DNA from: Candidatus Acidiferrum sp.
Lineage (GTDB): Bacteria > Vulcanimicrobiota > Vulcanimicrobiia > Vulcanimicrobiales > Vulcanimicrobiaceae
NCBI GenBank assembly: GCA_035571115.1
Contig: DATMKR010000057.1
Location: 4,231 to 68,230, forward strand
Direction of reading: 5' to 3'
DNA length: 64,000 bases
This document shows, piece after piece, positions 6,524-47,565 of this stretch (its first letter is position 1; every line of letters starts with the position of its first letter). The notes beneath the pieces are model-generated. The model worked only from the letters and a program-made list of their open reading frames with translations. It had not been told where the DNA came from and searched no databases. The position numbers and the translations under genes were made by a program.

Positions 6524-6575
6524 GTCCTTCGACGGGGCTCAGGATGACAGCGCTAACGAGGCTCAGGACGACAAC
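6524..6575. repeat. Copy of the GC-rich palindromic repeat family (CCTTCGAC..GCTCAGGATGACA)
   Basis: The sequence is gtccttcgacggggctcaggatgacagcgctaacgaggctcaggacgaca, immediately after the lptD-like stop. The same core occurs at 22.9, 39.4, 41.9 and 47.3 kb. Confidence 0.5.
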
Positions 6576-22896: not shown

Positions 22897-22975
22897 ATCC
22901 TTCGTCCTTCGACCCTTCGACCCTTCGGCAAGCTCAGGGCAGGCTGAGCTCAGGGCAGGCTGAGCTCAGGGTGAC
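22897..22975. repeat. Copy of the GC-rich repeat family with internal short tandem duplications
   Basis: The sequence is ccttcgtccttcgacccttcgacccttcggcaagctcagggcaggctgagctcagggcaggctgagctcagggtgac. CCTTCGAC is iterated and GCTCAGGGCAGGCTGA is duplicated. It is related to the in-frame ileS copy at 41.8 kb. Confidence 0.5.
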
Positions 22976-23023
22976 CCTCCAGGGGTGACAACGTTAGGTC
23001 GGCCGACGGCGAACTCTGGCGGT

Positions 23024-37380: not shown

Positions 37381-38263
37381 GCAAGCCGGGAAACGCACCG
37401 ACGTCCTCGTCGCTTGGCTCTCGGGGGTTTCGCGAACCCTCGTAACGCAAACCGCTCGGCGGGGAGAGGTTCTCGTCAACGGCAGCCCTGCCAAACCCAG
37501 CCGCCTGTTAGAAACCGGCGACGTGCTCGAGTTCGAAATTGCACAGCCGCCCGCGCTCGTAGCGCGGCCCGAACCGATTCCGCTCGACGTCGTTTACGAA
37601 GACGACGATCTGCTCGTCATCAATAAAGATGCCGGAATGGTGTCGCATCCGGCGCACGGTACGACGAGCGGGACGCTGGTCAACGCGCTGCTCGCACACG
37701 TCCAGGCAAGCCTTCCCGGCGATCTGCTGCGCCCCGGACTCGTCCACCGGCTCGATCGCGACACCTCCGGCCTGCTCGTCGTCGCGAAGCGCGAAGAGAG
37801 CCTGCGCGCTCTCGGCCTCGCAATGAAAGCGCGCCGCATCGAGCGCGAGTATCTCGGACTCGTGCGCGGCATCCCGCAGCACCCGCTCGGCACGATCGAA
37901 GGACCGATCGGACGCGATCCGCGCAATCGTCTGAGGTTCGCGATCGTCGCCGACGGCAAACCCGCCCTGACGCACTACGAGGTGCGTGAAGCCTTTGCGG
38001 CGCACTCCGAGTTGCTCTTTCGCCTCGAAACCGGCAGAACGCACCAGATTCGCGTGCACATGGCCGGGATCGGCCATCCGATCCTCAACGATCCGCTCTA
38101 TGGCAAGATTGAATCGCGGTTCGAGCTTCGGGGACAGGCGCTGCATGCGTGGCGGCTTGCGTTTCGCCACCCACGCACCGACGAAGCGCTGTCATTTGAA
38201 GCTGCGCCTCCTCGCGAGTACATGCAGGCTCGCGCGCTCGTAAGCAGCAACAAGAATGTTTGA
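37361..38263 (+). CDS. rluD: RluA-family 23S rRNA pseudouridine synthase (RluD-like)
   Basis: S4 domain, then HRLDRDTSGLLVVAK and GRTHQIRVH. A TTG at 37361 is proposed as the start, since the track ATG at 37307 lies inside lspA. Confidence 0.85.
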   Translation: MHVVTAEQAGKRTDVLVAWLSGVSRTLVTQTARRGEVLVNGSPAKPSRLLETGDVLEFEIAQPPALVARPEPIPLDVVYEDDDLLVINKDAGMVSHPAHGTTSGTLVNALLAHVQASLPGDLLRPGLVHRLDRDTSGLLVVAKREESLRALGLAMKARRIEREYLGLVRGIPQHPLGTIEGPIGRDPRNRLRFAIVADGKPALTHYEVREAFAAHSELLFRLETGRTHQIRVHMAGIGHPILNDPLYGKIESRFELRGQALHAWRLAFRHPRTDEALSFEAAPPREYMQARALVSSNKNV

Positions 38264-39368
38264 GCTTCTCGCTAAAGACGGTAACGCGCGGCGCGGGCGG
38301 CTGCAGCTCGCGCACGGAATCGTGGAGACGCCGTGTTTTATGCCGGTGGGGACGGCGGGGACGGTCAAGGGATTGACGCCGGCCGAGCTGGTGGAAGCGC
38401 AGTCGCAGATCGTGCTTGCGAACACGTATCATCTCTGGTTGCGGCCCGGACTGGAGACGATCGAGCGCGCAGGCGGCCTCCATGCATTTATGGCTTGGGA
38501 ACGGCCAATTCTTACGGATTCGGGCGGCTTTCAGGTTTTCAGTTTGGAGAGCAGGCGTGAGGTCGATGACGACGGCGTCACGTTTCGGTCGCATCTTGAT
38601 GGGAGCGAGCATCGGTTCACGCCCGAGAACGTTGTCGCGTTTCAAGAGGCCGTCGGGAGCGATGTTGCGATGGCGCTCGATGTGTGCGTGAAGCTTCCCG
38701 CGGCGCGTGACGCGCTCGAAGAGTCGGTGCGTCTGACGACCCTCTGGGCTCAGCGCTCCGCCGCCGCGCGCACGGTGCCGGCGACGGCGCTCTTTGGGAT
38801 CGTACAAGGCGGGTTAGAGCCGGCGTTGCGAGAGCGCAGCGCGCGCGAGTTGGTGGCGCTCGATTTTCCTGGGTACGCGATCGGTGGACTCTCCGTCGGC
38901 GAGACGCGCGAGCAGATGTACGCGACCGCACGCGTAACGGCGGCGATACTTCCGAAAGAGAAGCCCCGCTATCTCATGGGCGTCGGGACCGTTCGCGACC
39001 TTCTGGAAGCGATCGATGCCGGGCTGGATCTCTTCGACTGCGTCTACCCGACGCGCTGTGGACGCAACGGACGCGCGATGACTCACGACGGCGAGCTCAA
39101 CCTCTTCAATGCCGCCTTCACGCGCGATTTCGCGCCGGTCGATCCGCGCTGCGACTGCGACACCTGCACGACCTTCTCGCGCGCGTATCTCTCCCATCTC
39201 TTCCGCAGCAAGGAGATGCTCGGGCCGCGCCTGCTCTCGCATCACAACGTGTATCTCGTCAACGCGCTGATGCGCGAAGCACGCGCGGCGATCGAGGCGC
39301 GGGAGTGGACGAACTTTCGGGAATGCCGGCGTGGGTGGCTGGGTCATCCTTCGACAGGCTCAGGATGA
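38256..39368 (+). CDS. tgt: Queuine tRNA-ribosyltransferase
   Basis: Motifs: TDSGGFQVFSL, LFGIVQGG, DCVYPTRCGRNG, and the zinc site CDCDTCTTFSRAYLSHL. The last roughly 8 codons and the stop lie in repeat-derived sequence. Confidence 0.9.
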   Translation: MFELLAKDGNARRGRLQLAHGIVETPCFMPVGTAGTVKGLTPAELVEAQSQIVLANTYHLWLRPGLETIERAGGLHAFMAWERPILTDSGGFQVFSLESRREVDDDGVTFRSHLDGSEHRFTPENVVAFQEAVGSDVAMALDVCVKLPAARDALEESVRLTTLWAQRSAAARTVPATALFGIVQGGLEPALRERSARELVALDFPGYAIGGLSVGETREQMYATARVTAAILPKEKPRYLMGVGTVRDLLEAIDAGLDLFDCVYPTRCGRNGRAMTHDGELNLFNAAFTRDFAPVDPRCDCDTCTTFSRAYLSHLFRSKEMLGPRLLSHHNVYLVNALMREARAAIEAREWTNFRECRRGWLGHPSTGSG

Positions 39369-39380
39369 CATCGACAAGCT

Positions 39381-39795
39381 CAGGATGACACTGGGAGTCC
39401 AAATTCCTCAGCGTCTGCGCGAAGCGCAGTCCTGAGCAAGGCTCCTGAGCTTGGCGAAGGGGCCGAGTCGAAGGGTCAGGATGACACTGGGAGTCCAAAT
39501 TCCTCAGCGTCTGCGCGAAGCGCAGTCCTGAGCAAGGCTCCTGAGCTTGGCGAAGGGGCCGAGTCGAAGGGTCAGGATGACACTAGGAGTCCAAATTCCT
39601 CAGCGCCTGCGCGAAGCGCAGTCCTGAGCGAGGCTCCTGAGCTTGGCGAAGGGGCCGAGTCGAAGGGTCAGGATGACATCGACAGCATGACACTAGGAGT
39701 CCAAATTCCTCAGCGTCTGCGCGAAGCGCAGTCCTGAGCAAGGCTCCTGAGCTTGGCGAAGGGGCCGAGTCGAAGGGTCAGGATGACACTGGGAG
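39381..39795. repeat. Tandem array of a 96-bp unit (4 full copies plus a partial copy)
   Basis: Units start at 39381, 39477, 39573 and 39669, with a partial unit at 39779. Units 1 and 2 are identical. Unit 3 differs at 3 positions. Unit 4 carries a 14-nt insertion. Each unit contains the hairpin CTGCGCgaaGCGCAG and the motifs TCCTGAGCAAGGCTCCTGAGC and GTCAGGATGACAC. Confidence 0.9.
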
Positions 39796-42600
39796 GGCGC
39801 GCACGACGCGCGTGCAATCCGCGCAAATATCGGGATGATCGGGATCCTCGCCGAGCTCCCGGTACTTCCAACACCGCACGCACTTGGCTCCGTCCGCGGG
39901 CAATAACTCGAAGGCTTCCGCTTCGCCCGAGCTCAGCGTCAACTGGGAGACGACCAACGCCTCACGCAGGTTGTCGCCAAGCGCGAGCAGCCGCTTGTAG
40001 ACCGCGGGGGGCACCGTAAGGCGCACCTGCGCCTCGAAGTCGCGCGGCTCCGCCGACGCCGCCACTCGGGCGCGCAGGGCGCGCAGTTGGCGCCAGAGCA
40101 CGAGGTCGCTTTCCGCGGCAGCGTTTCGGGACCGGTTTACATCGAAGGAACTGTCGAAAACGCTTTCGGTCCGCTCTCGGCGCCATTGGGGAAGATGCTG
40201 CCACGCCTCCTCCGCGGTAAACGAAAGCACGGGCGCGACCGTCGTGAAAAATCGCGTCGCGATGTAGAGCAGCGCCGACTGTGCGCTGCGGCGGCGTGGA
40301 TCGCCGGCAGCGCGCGAGTAGAGCGGATCCTTGAGCGCGTCGAAAAAGAGGCTCGACATCGAGCTTTCGAACTCGACGATGCGCAGATAGGCATCGTGTA
40401 TCTCGCAGGAATCGTACGCCTCTTTAACGCCGGCGACGAACGCGTCGGTCACGCTGCAGGCAAGCCGGTCGATCGGCTCCATCGCTTCGCGCGCGACGAC
40501 GTCCGCGGCGGAAAGGTCCTCCAGATTCGAGAGCATGAAGCGCATGCGATTTCGCAGGTTTCGGTAGACGCGTCCGACTTGGTCGACGACGTTGGGCCCG
40601 AAGCGCACGTCGTCGATGGGCTCGACCGAGGCAGCCCACAACCGTAAGACGTCGGCGCCCCAGCGGGCCATCGCATCGCTCGCGTCGATGCCGGTTCCCC
40701 GCGATTTCGACATGGGGCGGCCTTCTTCGTCGTTCACCCAGCCGTTCTTCATCACGCGCCGGTACGGCGCGCGGCCTTTGATCGCGACGGCCGTGATGAG
40801 CGAGCTGCGAAACCAGCCTCGGAACTGATCGCCGCCCTCGAGAACGAGGTCGCTCGGCCACGGCATCCCATCGCGTCCCAGCACGGCGAGGTGGGTCACT
40901 CCCGACTCAAACCAAATGTCGACGACGTTCTTCTCTTTTTCGAGATCGCAACCACCGCAGCGCGGACAGACGAAGCCGTCGGGAAGATAGGTCTGCACCG
41001 GATCGCTCCACCACGAACCTGCGCCGGCCTCGGCAAAACGTTTCGCGGCAATGCGCGCCACGCGCGGATCGAGGATCGCCTCGGCGCACTCTTTGCAGAC
41101 TAAGGACGGAATCGGCGTTCCCCACGTTCGCTGCCGCGAAAGACACCACTCGGGATGCGTTTCGATCATCTGCCGCTGGCGCGCACGCCCCCATTGCGGC
41201 GCGTACTCGACTGCGTCGGTCGCGTCGAGCGCACGCTGGCGAAGCAGGTTTTGATCCATCGCGAGAAACCACTGCGCCGTCGCGCGGAAAATCACGGGAT
41301 TGTGACAGCGCCAGCAATGTGGATAGGAATGCTGGTACTCCGCCGCGCTCCACAGCGCACCGCTCGCGCGCAAGTCGTCGACGATGCGCGCATTGGCCGC
41401 GAAAATGTTCATGCCGGCGTAGGGCCCGGCCTCGGCCGTAAAACGGCCGGCCGCATCGACCGGATTGAGAATCGGCAGACCGTATTTCATTCCCGTATCG
41501 AAATCGTCGGCCCCGTGCCCGGGCGCAGTGTGAACTGCTCCCGTCCCGGTCTCGAGGTCCACGTACGGCGCGAGCACGATCGTCGAATCGCGCTCCATGA
41601 ACGGATGGCGCACGGCGAGTCCGTCGAGCCGTTCGCCAAGTGCGCGGCCAATCAGCGTCGCCTCTGCGAATCGCTCGCCCAGCGCGCGTTGCGCGAGCGC
41701 CTCGGCGACGATCAGCATCTCGCCGTCCACGCGATAGAGCCCGTAGGTCGCGTCGGCGCGCAAAGCGATGGCCACGTTTGCCGGAAGCGTCCACGGCGTC
41801 GTCGTCCAGATGAGGAATGAGACTGGGATCGCAGTGTCACCCTGAGCCAGCCTGCCCTGAGCGCTGTCGAAGGGAAGGGCGACACTGCCAGCGCCATCAT
41901 GCTTCGGCGGGCTCAGCATGACACCGAGGATCCGTTCCCGCTGCTCGTCGTTCGCGGCGAAGCGAACGTAGATCGAAGGTGACGTGCGCTGCTCGTACTC
42001 GATCTCGGCCTCCGCCAGCGCCGTCTCGTCGTGGACGCACCAGAGCGTCGAGCGCAAACCCTTATAGATTTGTTGGCGCTCGGCCAGATCGGCAAGCGCG
42101 TTTACGATCGTTGCTTCAAAAGAGGGATCGATCGTGCGGTACGGATGGTCGAGGAAGCCGAAGGTACCCATCCGCCTCCGCTGCTCTCGTTGACGCTCGA
42201 GCCAGTAGAGAGCGCGTTCTTTGCACTGCGCGCGCAGTTCGAGCGGATCGACGGCGTGAAAATCCTTGATTCCCAAATACTTGAGCGTTTCGTACTCGAT
42301 GGGGAGTCCGTGCATGTCCCAGCCGGGAACGAACTTCGCGTACTTCCCGTCGAGCAGTGCGATCTTCACGAACATGTCCTTGAGCACCATGTTTAGGAAA
42401 TGGCCCATGTGCAGCTCGCCGTTCGCATACGGCGGCCCGTCGTGCAAAATCCACGCACCGCTCGGCGCGTTGCGCTCCAAGCGCCGTTCGTACGTACCTT
42501 GCTCGTTCCACCACGCGACGCGCTGCGGCTCTCGCTTGGAAAGATCCGCCTTCATCGGAAAGGCGGTCTTCGGCAGATTCAACGTGTTCCGGTAATCCAT
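39778..42600 (-). CDS. ileS: Isoleucine--tRNA ligase (type 1)
   Basis: Start at MDYRNTLNLPKTAFPMKADL (ATG 42600, TGATG overlap with the csaB stop). Motifs: PYANGELHMGH, WTTTPWTLPAN, KMSKS-like RPMSKSRG, and a C-terminal Zn motif CVRCWKY...CADC. The 124-aa upstream extension in the track (to 42972) is an artefact. Confidence 0.95.
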   Translation of the reverse strand: MDYRNTLNLPKTAFPMKADLSKREPQRVAWWNEQGTYERRLERNAPSGAWILHDGPPYANGELHMGHFLNMVLKDMFVKIALLDGKYAKFVPGWDMHGLPIEYETLKYLGIKDFHAVDPLELRAQCKERALYWLERQREQRRRMGTFGFLDHPYRTIDPSFEATIVNALADLAERQQIYKGLRSTLWCVHDETALAEAEIEYEQRTSPSIYVRFAANDEQRERILGVMLSPPKHDGAGSVALPFDSAQGRLAQGDTAIPVSFLIWTTTPWTLPANVAIALRADATYGLYRVDGEMLIVAEALAQRALGERFAEATLIGRALGERLDGLAVRHPFMERDSTIVLAPYVDLETGTGAVHTAPGHGADDFDTGMKYGLPILNPVDAAGRFTAEAGPYAGMNIFAANARIVDDLRASGALWSAAEYQHSYPHCWRCHNPVIFRATAQWFLAMDQNLLRQRALDATDAVEYAPQWGRARQRQMIETHPEWCLSRQRTWGTPIPSLVCKECAEAILDPRVARIAAKRFAEAGAGSWWSDPVQTYLPDGFVCPRCGGCDLEKEKNVVDIWFESGVTHLAVLGRDGMPWPSDLVLEGGDQFRGWFRSSLITAVAIKGRAPYRRVMKNGWVNDEEGRPMSKSRGTGIDASDAMARWGADVLRLWAASVEPIDDVRFGPNVVDQVGRVYRNLRNRMRFMLSNLEDLSAADVVAREAMEPIDRLACSVTDAFVAGVKEAYDSCEIHDAYLRIVEFESSMSSLFFDALKDPLYSRAAGDPRRRSAQSALLYIATRFFTTVAPVLSFTAEEAWQHLPQWRRERTESVFDSSFDVNRSRNAAAESDLVLWRQLRALRARVAASAEPRDFEAQVRLTVPPAVYKRLLALGDNLREALVVSQLTLSSGEAEAFELLPADGAKCVRCWKYRELGEDPDHPDICADCTRVVRALPVSS
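41819..41925. repeat. Repeat-family copy embedded in frame in ileS
   Basis: The minus strand reads ggtgtcatgctgagcccgcc...cccttcgacagcgctcagggcaggctggctcagggtgacact and encodes GVMLSPPKHDGAGSVALPFDSAQGRLAQGDTAIPVS just before IWTTTPWT. It closely resembles the intergenic copy at 22.9 kb and has inverted termini GTCATGCTGAGC / GCTCAGGGTGAC. Confidence 0.5.
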
Positions 42601-43697
42601 CACTCGTCGTCCAAGAGCTCGCCGAGGACCTCGAAGTTTCGCTCTGCGGCCGCCTGGACAACCGGGAGGCGCTGCGCCAACGCAGCCGAGAGACGATCGC
42701 GCTCGGAGACGAGCCGGTCGACGAGCGCGTCGATCGCGCCGTCGCTCGGGCGCGGTCTGCCTGGAATCCAGAGCGGCTGCAAAGGATAGTCGAGATCCTC
42801 GCAGAGCGCCGTCACTTTCGGATCGTACGGTATGGCGAGAAATGGGACGGCGAAGCGCGCGGCGAGAACCAGCGCGTGCAGACGCATACCGATCGCGAGG
42901 CGAGCGCCCTGTAAAATCGCGGCTGCCTTTTCGAGCGTGCACTCGGGAAGCAGCACGGGCGCCGACGAGCAAGCGCGAATGACGTCGGTCGACAGGGCAG
43001 CATCGGGCGCGCCTCCCAACGGCAAAAAGGCCGCACGCACGTTGTGGCGGTCTGCGAGGCGATCGACGGCCCGCGCGAGGACGGGTATCCCATCCCGGAA
43101 CGATGCGGCCTTTCGCACGCTGATCACGGCATAGGCGCCGCTCTCCGGCCCGAGGCCGTCGGCCGCAAGATCGTCACGCGCTGCAGGCCGGTCGTACAAA
43201 AAGACGGGATCCGCGGTGCGCTCGACCGGCGCGCCGGGCAAGAGATCCTTGAGCAAACGCAGCGACCGCTCGTCGCGCACGGTTGCCCGATCGAGGCCCC
43301 TGCAGAAGCCTCGCACCACCCAGCGCCCCCAAAAATCGAGCGGTCCGATGGATTGAGCGAAGATCATCGCTTTGCGTCCGCTGCGAATCGCTTCGCGCAA
43401 AACCGCAGCGTAATAGAGCAGGCTGCGCAGGCTCGTTTCGTTTTGCAAGAGACCTCCGCCGCCGGAGAGCACGACGTCGGCCCGTCCGATGGCGGTGCGA
43501 ACGGCGCGCCAATCCCATCGAGCCGTCGCGTCGACGCGATAGGCGGCTGCGGTACGCTGAGGTGTTGCCGATAGCACTTCGATCGATGCCGCGGGAAAGT
43601 CACGGCGCAGACGCTCGACGATCACCTCGAGCAGCGCCTCGTCGCCCAAATTGCCAAAGCCGTAATAGCCGGAGATCAGTACGCGCGCCCTTTCGAC
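42600..43697 (-). CDS. csaB: Polysaccharide pyruvyl transferase CsaB
   Basis: Motifs: VLISGYYGFGNLGDEALLEVIVERL, VVLSGGGGLLQN. The start is unresolved: no ATG/GTG/TTG lies in frame between the upstream gene's stop (43727) and the conserved N-terminus. The track ORF to 44351 is an Arg-rich overlap artefact. Confidence 0.75.
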   Translation of the reverse strand, partial: VERARVLISGYYGFGNLGDEALLEVIVERLRRDFPAASIEVLSATPQRTAAAYRVDATARWDWRAVRTAIGRADVVLSGGGGLLQNETSLRSLLYYAAVLREAIRSGRKAMIFAQSIGPLDFWGRWVVRGFCRGLDRATVRDERSLRLLKDLLPGAPVERTADPVFLYDRPAARDDLAADGLGPESGAYAVISVRKAASFRDGIPVLARAVDRLADRHNVRAAFLPLGGAPDAALSTDVIRACSSAPVLLPECTLEKAAAILQGARLAIGMRLHALVLAARFAVPFLAIPYDPKVTALCEDLDYPLQPLWIPGRPRPSDGAIDALVDRLVSERDRLSAALAQRLPVVQAAAERNFEVLGELLDDE

Positions 43698-43726
43698 GGA
43701 GCCTGTCCCCGGCGTGGAAGAAGGCC

Positions 43727-45730
43727 TCAGGACAAACTCCGGCGGTAGAGGCTGCGTCGATAGATCCAGATCAGCGCCGCCCCGACGATCGCGCCCGCGA
43801 CGAGCCCATTGAGGATTCGCAAGACCGAAATCTCGAGCGGGGTGTGCAGGTGCGAAAACGTGTCGATAACGTCGCCAATCCCGACCCCGATGCAGAGCGC
43901 CAAGAGCCAGCCTACCGCGCGCCGGTGCGGCGGCAGCAAGGCCGGCAGTACCATCATGGCGGGAACGCCGATCAAGAACTCCTTGAAGCGAGGACGGACG
44001 CTCAGCGTGGCGGTCAGGAGATGGCGAAACGCGAGCTCGAAGGGCGAAGGCGAGACTTCGCTGTCGTTGCCGCTGCGCACGAGCATCAGCGCGCCGGCGG
44101 CAACGATCGCGATCCCCGCCAAGAGCTGATAGGTCAGGACCGGCGAGAGAAAGACGTCCCGCGGCCGCTCGACGCCCGAGCCGAAACGCCGGTCGAACAG
44201 GTAGAGCGCCAGCGCGATGAGCGGCGGCAGCGCCAGGACGAGCCGGACGCCTCGGAAGCGCTCGATCTCCTCCATTGCCAGCGGCGCGCTCATGACGCCG
44301 ACGACGACGAGCGCGCCGAGCAGCGCGACGCCCGTCGCCGCGAGGGTCCAACCAAGGCTGCGGACGAGCTGAGTGCCGGCGCCGCTCGCGGGCGTTTCAT
44401 TCCAGGCCGGGATCAAAATCAAGATTGCCGCGGTCGCGAAGAGCAGCGCGCCGGCGAGCGCGATGGCGGAGCGCGCGAATGCGTCGTGATGCGTCAGTAC
44501 TCCCGCGAGGTACAGCGCGATCGTCGCGCCGTAAGCGATGACGGCAATTCGACGCCCGTACAAGCCGAAGAATTCGAGCAGCAGCACGAAAATCGACGGG
44601 ACGGCTAGCGCCGCCAGCCCTACCAGAACCCGATTGTTGCCGCGATACGCAGGAATCGGCGTGGCCCGCCCCAGACGAAAACCGCCGGCGCGCAGCTGAT
44701 CCGCGATCTGCTTGACCATTTCGACATTGGTCGCCTCGACCGAAAGATCTCCATCTTGGTGCGCCCACGGACGCAAGTACGCGACTCGGACGTTGCGTTC
44801 GCGAACGCCCAAGACGTATCGCGCGACAACCTCGTCGAGCTTGAGCTTATCCAGTTCGGTTTTCGCGATAGCCTGAACGCGAACCGTCCGGCCGGGAATG
44901 AGCCGCGCAAGGGTGTCGTTGCCCTTCTGCACTTGACTGGGATCGTACGTCTCGATCGACCCGAAGTTGAAGAGGTGACGTTTGAAGGCTTCCGCCGTAT
45001 CCTCCAGATGATCGGGATAACCGGCAACCGCATTGCTCAACCCGGAGAAGATAACCGTCGAGACCTTCGGGTCGTAGGCAAGCACATCGTCGAAAAGCGC
45101 TTCGATCTGCGGCGCGCGAAAACGCTCGTCATTTTGAAAACGCGGAACAACCAGTAGCCCGAGCCGGTGTGCCAGCGCGATTTCGTCCGTTGGGATGCCT
45201 AAGCCGATCGCGTCGAAGTAGTCGATTTGCGTCCGGACCTCGATAAGCCAGGGGCGAGTCGCCCGCAAGACCCGCACGCTCTTGGGGCTAAAATGCAACG
45301 AAAGCTGGGCCAAATAACGTCGATACGTCGAGGAATCCGATACCAGGAGATAGATGGCCCCGGCGTCGACGCGCCGGCCGGCGACCAAGGAGGCCAGCAA
45401 GGGATCGCGGAGCGGGGAGAGTCGCGACTGATTGAGGAGCGCCGCCCCGGTCGTCGCATAAGACTTTCCGTTGTAGCCGACGTTCGCGCCGAGCTCTTCG
45501 GTGAGGGCCAGCGAGGTTAGGCCCGCACGCCGCAGCGCGATCAGGAATGCGGCGGGATTATAGTTGTACGAGCGCGCGAGAGCATCGAGATCGCTGAAAT
45601 CCATGGCGAGTTCGACGCGGTTTGCGTGCGATTCCGTGCGAAGGCGAAATCCCGCGACGGCCAGCGAGGCGATTAGTGCGACGAGCAAGACGACGGCCGC
45701 GTAGCGCGTCCTGGGAGTAAAAAGAGTCAC
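43727..45730 (-). CDS. Large membrane protein, DUF5693-like (csaB-associated)
   Basis: 667 aa with an N-terminal TM helix, a roughly 330-aa extracytoplasmic domain, then about 8 TM helices. The family assignment comes from memory of csaB neighbourhoods and is not verified. Confidence 0.6.
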   Translation of the reverse strand: MTLFTPRTRYAAVVLLVALIASLAVAGFRLRTESHANRVELAMDFSDLDALARSYNYNPAAFLIALRRAGLTSLALTEELGANVGYNGKSYATTGAALLNQSRLSPLRDPLLASLVAGRRVDAGAIYLLVSDSSTYRRYLAQLSLHFSPKSVRVLRATRPWLIEVRTQIDYFDAIGLGIPTDEIALAHRLGLLVVPRFQNDERFRAPQIEALFDDVLAYDPKVSTVIFSGLSNAVAGYPDHLEDTAEAFKRHLFNFGSIETYDPSQVQKGNDTLARLIPGRTVRVQAIAKTELDKLKLDEVVARYVLGVRERNVRVAYLRPWAHQDGDLSVEATNVEMVKQIADQLRAGGFRLGRATPIPAYRGNNRVLVGLAALAVPSIFVLLLEFFGLYGRRIAVIAYGATIALYLAGVLTHHDAFARSAIALAGALLFATAAILILIPAWNETPASGAGTQLVRSLGWTLAATGVALLGALVVVGVMSAPLAMEEIERFRGVRLVLALPPLIALALYLFDRRFGSGVERPRDVFLSPVLTYQLLAGIAIVAAGALMLVRSGNDSEVSPSPFELAFRHLLTATLSVRPRFKEFLIGVPAMMVLPALLPPHRRAVGWLLALCIGVGIGDVIDTFSHLHTPLEISVLRILNGLVAGAIVGAALIWIYRRSLYRRSLS

Positions 45731-47310: not shown

Positions 47311-47422
47311 CCCTTCGACAAGCTCAGGAGCCTTGCTCAGGATGACAATGGGCGATGACGGCCCTTCGACGCGGCCCCTTCGACAAGCTCAGGAGCCTTG
47401 CTCAGGATGACAATGGGCGATG
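47311..47422. repeat. Perfect 47-bp direct repeat (two copies, 65-bp period) of the repeat family, abutting tRNA-Val
   Basis: cccttcgacaagctcaggagccttgctcaggatgacaatgggcgatg occurs at 47311-47357 and 47376-47422. The last 9 nt of copy 2 are the 3' acceptor end of tRNA-Val. Confidence 0.85.
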
Positions 47423-47486
47423 CAGGACTTGAACCTGCGACATCCTCCTTGTAAGGGAGGCGCTCTCCCAGCTGAGCTAATCGCCC
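47414..47486 (-). tRNA. tRNA-Val (anticodon TAC)
   Basis: The reverse complement GGGCGATTAGCTCAGCTGGGAGAGCGCCTCCCTTACAAGGAGGATGTCGCAGGTTCAAGTCCTGCATCGCCCA folds as a canonical 73-nt cloverleaf: 7-bp acceptor stem, GCTC/GAGC D stem, CCTCC/GGAGG anticodon stem with loop CTTACAA, and GCAGG/CCTGC T stem. CCA is not encoded. Confidence 0.9.
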
Positions 47487-47565
47487 ACGCTTGCTAGCGC
47501 GTAACCCTTCGGCCGAACCGGTTTCTTTTACTTCACGGAGCGCCGGGTTGCTGTGGGAGGTTTAG

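Follow-up and report, generated by a model that had tools for sequence, protein, structure and literature searches.

GIY-YIG nucleases of the Ssn type, proteins of about 94 amino acids (cd10448, a clade separate from UPF0213/YhbQ and the other GIY-YIG families) that include SsnA of Neisseria meningitidis, cut single-stranded DNA next to their own hairpin repeat, termed NTS or SRM, in a strand-specific manner and are inactive on dsDNA and RNA (Chenal et al. 2025, Nat Commun 16:2388, PMC11893778). The ssn genes are flanked by this repeat, the arrangement NTS-ssnA-NTS resembles an insertion sequence, and the copies of the repeat number in the hundreds, clustered around genes; the same authors compare this arrangement with repetitive extragenic palindromes (REPs), bacterial interspersed mosaic elements (BIMEs), and REP-associated tyrosine transposases (RAYTs). 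Here we analyse a tandem array of hairpins that fills the gap between the convergent genes tgt and ileS in a 64,000-nucleotide stretch of bacterial DNA (the window; positions 4231-68230 of contig C57), which belongs to G000, the metagenome-assembled genome (MAG) of an uncultured soil bacterium, Candidatus Cybelea (Eremiobacterota; 2.79 Mb in 152 contigs, 99% complete). The array is probably a non-coding, local tandem amplification of a mosaic unit drawn from a hairpin repeat that is dispersed through the genus, and this repeat is the probable partner of an Ssn-type GIY-YIG gene.

REPs and BIMEs provide the second point of comparison. The BIMEs and REPs of Enterobacteria and Pseudomonas are mosaics of palindromic units in alternating orientation together with other short motifs (PMC3733652, PMC2817692). 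Di Nocera et al. 2013 (PMC3733652) report REP termini that supply stop codons, REPs inside open reading frames (ORFs), and clusters that are reiterated in tandem with flanking DNA. That paper also treats transposase-less, CGTC-tagged REPs, including Neisseria dRS3 and Rickettsia RPE-4/6, of which families 1-4 have stems of 8-9 bp and loops of 4-5 nt.

A mosaic tandem array between tgt and ileS

Tandem Repeats Finder (TRF) reports a 96-nt period repeated 4.2 times at 39380-39795 (89% matches, score 685), and this is the top-scoring non-coding tandem repeat of the whole genome. A 20-nt period (2.0 copies at 39351-39390) precedes and partly overlaps it, a further call gives a 110-nt period (2.0 copies at 39573-39788), and the exact period-96 run is 109 nt long. 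An earlier note on this DNA had proposed a 96-bp array of about 4.3 copies in the convergent gap, with units 1 and 2 identical, three substitutions in unit 3, a 14-nt insertion at unit 4 and the hairpin CTGCGC-gaa-GCGCAG in every unit. The TRF calls and an in-register comparison of the units bear out this description (Table 1), and CTGCGCGAAGCGCAG is found in 4/4 units.

The unit is a mosaic of hairpin modules in both orientations. It contains a (+) right arm (TCAGGATGACA), the CTGCGC-gaa-GCGCAG hairpin, here called hairpin B (CTGCGCgaaGCGCAG), a (-) variant element (GGCTCCTGAGCTTGGCGAAGGGGCC) and a degenerate (+) copy (GAGTCGAAGGGTCAGGATGACA), and is closed by the 18-nt direct repeat TCAGGATGACACTGGGAG. 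Direct repeats at the bounds of the units suit multiplication by slippage or unequal recombination. The complete hairpin element at the start of the locus folds as DNA with -6.2 kcal/mol. The figure of 4.3 copies is a minimum, since two identical units are also expected when a de Bruijn assembler collapses more than two of them.

Both genes end in repeat DNA, as the earlier note had held. The tgt stop (TGA, 39366-39368) lies within the first hairpin element, which encodes this stop and the final seven codons of a protein that ends in ...WLGHPSTGSG; the tgt of relatives with an empty junction ends in ...FRARWRTSA. On the other side, the complement of the ileS TGA (39778-39780) lies in the last partial unit, and the final PVSS and the stop of ...RALPVSS are repeat-derived.

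The frame in phase with tgt stays free of stops for more than 110 codons past the tgt TGA (39369-39700, + strand), with HRQAQDDTGSPNSSASARSAVLSKAPELGEGAESKG repeated in its translation. Read-through of the TGA would add a repeat-encoded tail to the protein, and the open frame is probably a coincidence of phase. A coding-repeat reading of the array was rejected: the in-phase frame has no start codon, and in the single-hairpin allele of a close relative (locus L054) the TGA of the element stands at the same place with the end of ileS directly behind it. A CRISPR reading was likewise set aside, the array being devoid of unique spacers, and an Rfam 15 covariance scan of 38800-40300 (E up to 10) returned only chance-level eukaryotic long non-coding RNA models with E >1.

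Table 1. Coordinates of the genes, array components and nuclease gene discussed in the text. Positions refer to the window unless a contig is given.
Feature	Position	Strand	Details
tgt, queuine tRNA-ribosyltransferase	38256..39368	+	Pfam TGT PF01702, E 1.4e-148
Complete basic hairpin element	39343..39370	+	Stem GTCATCC 39343-39349, loop TTCGACAGGCTCA 39350-39362, stem GGATGAC 39363-39369, then a conserved A
Half-element copy TCGACAAGCTCAGGATGACA, 20-nt short-period repeat	39371..39390	+	The final 11 nt double as the beginning of unit 1
Units 1 and 2 of the 96-nt mosaic repeat	39380-39475, 39476-39571	+	Mutually identical
Unit 3	39572..39667	+	Departs from units 1 and 2 by 3 substitutions (unit positions 14, 35 and 59)
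14-nt insert TCAGGATGACATCG	39668..39681	+	Remnant of the 20-nt half-element repeat at the start of the locus
Unit 4	39682..39777	+	Differs at positions 1, 5 and 14
Terminal partial unit TCAGGATGACACTGGGAG, 18 nt	39778..39795	+	Direct repeat bounding every unit; carries the complement of the ileS stop (39778-39780)
ileS, isoleucyl-tRNA synthetase ORF	39778..42972	-	Pfam tRNA-synt_1, Anticodon_1, zf-FPG_IleRS
Small stand-alone GIY-YIG gene, the only one in G000 (locus L237/L240)	C125:505-786	-	PF01541 E 3.2e-16, 94-aa conserved core, no other domain

The array belongs to a dispersed hairpin family

The basic module of the array, the hairpin GTCATCC-TTCGACAGGCTCA-GGATGAC, is one member of a family with the consensus GGTCATCC-TTCGACAGGCTCA-GGATGACA, derived from 238 genomic copies. 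Within the 2.79 Mb of G000 the core GCTCAGGATGAC occurs 243 times, and the 11-mer TCAGGATGACA occurs 290 times where about 1.3 occurrences are expected. In total, 257 cores are grouped in 110 clusters, half of which are multi-copy with a maximum of 10 cores, and nine of which lie at contig ends. Tandem amplification is common in the family: of the 48 tandem arrays that reach 100 bp or more, 23 contain the core, with periods of 15-137 nt, and short-period (15-26 nt) arrays of half-elements are frequent. The 96-nt unit is itself modular, and its sub-modules match about 70 places in the genome. A composite of 72-84 nt, which holds hairpin B, the inverted variant hairpin and the degenerate direct copy, recurs singly at other loci of G000 and in other genomes of the genus with 90-97% identity.

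The stem of the hairpin varies in a manner that preserves pairing. Pair 3 covaries (T-A in 136 copies, C-G in 43), and at pair 4 there are 102 copies with A-T and 56 with G-T; because of the G-T pairs only the TTCGAC strand folds fully, so that the fold is strand-specific. Stem pairing and covariation indicate that the hairpin is kept by selection as a structure. Crude gene calls place 93 of the 110 clusters outside genes or at contig ends, and the number of clusters per kb of gap is 0.35 in convergent, 0.21 in tandem and 0.15 in divergent gaps, with 16 clusters in divergent, promoter-side gaps.

The family is characteristic of the genus within its class, and its centre recurs in distant bacteria. 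A 19-mer hairpin pattern was found in 21 of 24 same-genus genomes and in none of the 16 that represent other genera within the order or class. The exact 20-mer CTTCGACAAGCTCAGGATGA is present in at least 118 stretches from more than 10 phyla, with a conserved centre and co-varying outer stem pairs.

The hairpin brackets a GIY-YIG nuclease gene

The only small stand-alone GIY-YIG gene of G000, on contig C125, lies between copies of the same hairpin in inverted orientation, with a 69-nt array of 4.6 copies on one side, which ranks second among the non-coding arrays of the genome, and at least three copies on the other. The resulting hairpin-nuclease-hairpin unit may be likened to an insertion sequence with hairpin ends. 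The nuclease frame continues into the flanking array, forming a 127-aa ORF with a repeat-encoded tail that ends in GHPSTLRQAQGRLSSG and a stop, and the contig begins about 125 nt before the 69-nt array.

This association extends through the genus. Homologues of the C125 nuclease were detected in 61 of 91 genus genomes, and at 30 genus loci (-) elements lie upstream of the gene in 22 cases, (+) elements lie downstream in 23, and both are present in 21; the opposite orientation is represented by three elements only. Up to 300 nt from the gene there are 5.06 elements per kb, against 0.043 per kb at greater distances, a 117-fold difference. A second GIY-YIG subclade (66-77% identity; L252-L268) is bracketed by a variant of the hairpin with the loop TTCGACTCCGCTCAGG in place of TTCGACAGGCTCAGG, which suggests that nuclease and hairpin change together. 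Taking the hairpin as the starting point instead, the 118 cross-phylum loci with the 20-mer contain a detectable nuclease homologue in only two cases, one of them 26 nt from the hairpin. Such scarcity is expected if most copies are non-autonomous, and going from the gene to its flanks is the informative direction for this test.

Comparison of the proteins places the C125 nuclease near, and apart from, the described Ssn proteins. It is 53% identical to the product of a Novosphingobium gene flanked by the same hairpin type, 46% identical to that of a Pedobacter gene with a loop variant of the hairpin in its flanks, and 33-38% identical to the NTS-flanked Ssn proteins of Povalibacter and Devosia. 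We used the latter two as Ssn references in place of Neisseria lactamica: a bridge to Neisseria SsnA through N. lactamica NS19 yielded as its sole match a UPF0213/YhbQ-type gene without NTS flanks. In a tree of 12 proteins the C125 protein groups with the NTS-flanked Povalibacter and Devosia genes, apart from UPF0213 (split support 99/96), and forms a separate basal branch. Its best PDB matches are the UPF0213 proteins 1ywl and 1zg2 (E 4e-11), and an NCBIfam search with it gave no match.

We therefore class the Cybelea system as Ssn-like with a differently built hairpin: the flanking arrangement matches, the protein branches separately and the published SRM pattern does not describe the repeat. 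Shared features are a single-domain GIY-YIG gene of about 94 aa between inverted copies of a 20-50-nt hairpin repeat, the presence of this repeat in hundreds of copies (243-290 cores here) that are mainly intergenic and often clustered, the directionality of the hairpin, and the recurrence of the same repeat sequence across phyla. In contrast, the Cybelea hairpin combines a stem of 7 bp with a conserved loop of 13 nt, its host belongs to the Eremiobacterota, and long-period composite tandem arrays are not described in PMC11893778, where the word 'tandem' occurs 0 times. The exact Neisseria NTS 25-mer CGTCATTCCCGCGMAVGCGGGAATC is as widespread as the 20-mer CTTCGACAAGCTCAGGATGA: at least 120 stretches contain it, and they come from many phyla, among them Dehalococcoidia, Bacteroidota, Planctomycetota, Terriglobia and Nitrospirota. 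It often forms inverted pairs with a spacing of 30-60 nt.

Several observations weigh against an Ssn-type partnership as the origin of the array. The published SRM pattern, HGTCWYN(0-2)YYVSBRHN(0-5)WNVSBRGN(0-2)RNCYNB, gave 19 matches as compared with 13 for a reversed control, and none of them falls in the element or the array. The identity of just 33-38% to NTS-flanked Ssn proteins and the separate branch of the C125 protein point in the same direction, as do the 54 pattern copies in genome G023 (97% complete, 50 contigs), which has no GIY-YIG homologue at E 1e-5; either the repeat-flanked gene was missed by the assembly, or the repeats persist without the nuclease. The excess of clusters in convergent gaps is a further such point, to which we return below.

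A proposed course from an empty junction to a tandem array

The close tgt homologues come from Candidatus Cybelea/Eremiobacterota (Vulcanimicrobiota) MAGs, and these relatives provide a series of states for the same junction. In most Cybelea relatives tgt and ileS are convergent without a spacer, and at loci L027, L028, L032 and L033 the junction is empty with overlapping stops (GCTTAAGC). L054, which is among the closest relatives (tgt 93% identical), holds precisely one hairpin in flanks identical to those of the window, and this hairpin is followed by GATGACAATGGGAGG/TCAGGATGACACTGGGAG, of which the 18-nt TCAGGATGACACTGGGAG also closes every unit of the array. The junction of L057 holds a variant with the compensatory stem GTCACCC/GGGTGAC, and other fillings are present in L029, L030, L040, L042 and L045. 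Filled junctions are spread over three separate clades of the tgt tree, where they arose independently and require no fewer than four changes; the junction is thus a recurrent landing site. Among the genomes sampled, the four-copy array is limited to the lineage of the window.

The earlier note had read the near-identity of the units as a sign of recent expansion by slippage or recombination and had called for copy number to be compared in related genomes. This comparison, in which the closest relatives have an empty junction or a single hairpin against at least four copies in the window, supports that view, together with the identical or nearly identical units and the 18-nt direct repeat at their bounds. 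The array is accordingly a recent, lineage-specific expansion at an insertion hot spot.

We infer the following order of events. The genes tgt and ileS would first have met with overlapping stops, as in the empty junctions. A hairpin would then have landed at the junction and replaced the last few codons of both genes, an insertion that would have been tolerated since, on either strand, one frame of each arm contains a TGA that re-terminates both genes. The 72-84-nt composite with hairpin B and the inverted variant hairpin may next have joined the first hairpin, and the 18-nt direct repeats on its flanks would finally, and very recently, have allowed slippage or unequal recombination to multiply the block to at least four copies. 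The nuclease presumably cuts the hairpin as single-stranded DNA, as Ssn proteins do, and the array itself would be mainly selfish or neutral.

A more far-reaching scheme, which we regard as speculative and rather doubtful, would make hairpin-ssn-hairpin an autonomous mobile element whose GIY-YIG single-strand nuclease recognises the loop and not the stem. The array would then be both its product and its substrate, nicking at single-stranded hairpins would drive insertion at convergent gene ends as well as tandem amplification, and the stack could form a barrier to recombination, replication or transcription between two essential genes.

Alternative explanations for the array

The earlier note had suggested that the array could act as a local device, a bidirectional terminator or insulator stack or an mRNA 3'-end stabiliser; as a dedicated device it would have been selected for stopping or protecting convergent transcripts. 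Part of the proposal stands, namely that transcripts from either strand would carry stacked stem-loops, for RNA folds of the array on both strands are far better than those of shuffled sequences (z -6.0 and -4.5). The G-T stem pairs also fit an RNA fold, the array lies exactly between two convergent essential genes, and REPs and BIMEs are credited elsewhere with mRNA stabilisation and termination (PMC3733652, PMC2817692). The density of clusters is moreover highest in convergent gaps, although this excess is compatible with better tolerance of insertions at 3' ends as well as with function. The regulatory part of the proposal found no support. A scan of 38900-40300 on both strands for intrinsic terminators gave 0 terminator-like sites, with no stem followed by a T-run, and a promoter scan at the array found none. 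The closest relatives manage without a spacer and with overlapping stops, the same element is found in divergent gaps, inside ileS and around the nuclease gene, and its orientation is unrelated to gene direction (16 co-oriented and 28 anti-oriented clusters). The identity of units 1 and 2, in turn, speaks for a very recent, unselected expansion. The array is one locus of a genome-wide, nuclease-linked family, and we consider a purpose-built device unlikely; selfish repeat DNA is the more likely reading, and any influence that the hairpins may have where tgt and ileS transcripts end would be an incidental by-product.

It is less likely still, to the point of being very improbable, that the array or its copy number was made by a short-read assembler from dispersed copies. 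The MAG consists of 152 contigs, whose ends often fall in these repeats (nine clusters at edges), two identical units resemble a collapsed cycle, and the modules are present elsewhere in the genome. However, the private variants of units 3 and 4 and the 14-nt insert anchor a linear path through the array, on both sides the array joins in-frame gene ends that agree with the single-hairpin allele of L054 at every base, and a collapse would mean that the true array is longer, not that it is absent. Arrays of homologous composites are also present in near-complete assemblies of relatives, with 3.1 copies of 108 nt in G052 and 4.2 copies of 71 nt in a 1.42-Mb contig of G100, so that arrays of this type are genuine.

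Relation to REP, BIME and RAYT systems

In its construction the array follows the mosaic plan of the BIMEs and REPs described in PMC3733652 and PMC2817692: the unit holds (+) and (-) hairpin modules together with hairpin B, it is reiterated in tandem with flanking DNA, and, in common with those repeats, family members occupy gene 3' ends, in unidirectional as well as convergent arrangements, and supply stop codons. The Cybelea family differs from them in the absence of a GTAG tag and of a RAYT gene in the genus, and in its association with a GIY-YIG nuclease. A classical REP/BIME cluster mobilised by a RAYT (IS200/IS605-type Y1) transposase is hardly credible, in spite of the short GC-rich palindromes in high copy, the mosaic clusters in both orientations, the location at gene 3' ends and the repeat-supplied stops that PMC3733652 gives for REPs, since Y1_Tnp (PF01797) has no match in G000 and none in 61 genus genomes while control genomes scored positive, the consensus head is GGTCATCC and not GTAG, and the repeat-bracketed gene encodes a GIY-YIG nuclease.

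The CGTC-tagged REPs are closer in some respects. They share with the Cybelea family a GTC-type head (mostly GGTC, TGTC or CGTC in Cybelea), the absence of a RAYT, an occurrence in several phyla and the ability to sit inside genes and overlap stop codons. In contrast to their 8-9-bp stems, 4-5-nt loops, CGTC or TGTC heads and CCA-like tails, the Cybelea element has a 7-bp stem, a loop of 11-13 nt that is its most conserved part, an NGTC head and the tail A-n-TGGGAGG. REPIN/RAYT systems, for their part, resemble the Cybelea system in having a low-copy enzyme gene with inverted repeat flanks and many non-autonomous copies elsewhere; their enzyme is an HUH Y1 protein whereas that of Cybelea is a GIY-YIG nuclease, and for both the Ssn and the Cybelea systems transposition is hypothetical.

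Implications

The largest non-coding tandem repeat of G000 is explained here by a pairing of repeat and nuclease that was first described in 2025. The known range of this Ssn-type pairing thereby comes to include the uncultured phylum Eremiobacterota, where the hairpin is built differently and escapes the published search pattern. The states of the tgt/ileS junction form a natural series, from empty through a single hairpin and variant fillings to a four-copy mosaic array, that could serve the study of insertion and amplification at the overlapping stops of essential genes. Two cautions for annotation also follow: tgt, ileS and many other genes of this genome take their C-terminal tails and stops from repeat DNA, and MAG contigs break at these arrays.

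Further observations in the window

An ORF of 583 aa (42600-44351, minus strand), for a polysaccharide pyruvyl transferase, overlaps the longest ileS ORF, which has a TTG at 42972. Since the synthetase domain of Pfam begins only at residue 151, the true ileS start probably lies further downstream than 42972. A copy of the hairpin family is present in frame inside ileS at about 41819-41925, with the motifs GTCACCCTG at 41836 and CCTGAGCGCTGTCGAA at 41856 (span 41836-41871).

Other members of the family are scattered along the window. At 47311-47422 there are two 47-nt copies of the variant element CCCTTCGACAAGCTCAGGAGCCTTGCTCAGGATGACAATGGGCGATG, which is the minus-strand inner part of the 96-nt unit, and the second copy runs into the 3' end of tRNA-Val(TAC) (47413-47487, minus strand). 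At 22897-22990 three copies of CCTTCGAC are followed by 2.6 copies of AGCTCAGGGCAGGCTG and by CAGGGTGAC. A single hairpin (6528-6548) lies at a gene junction within 6524-6575.

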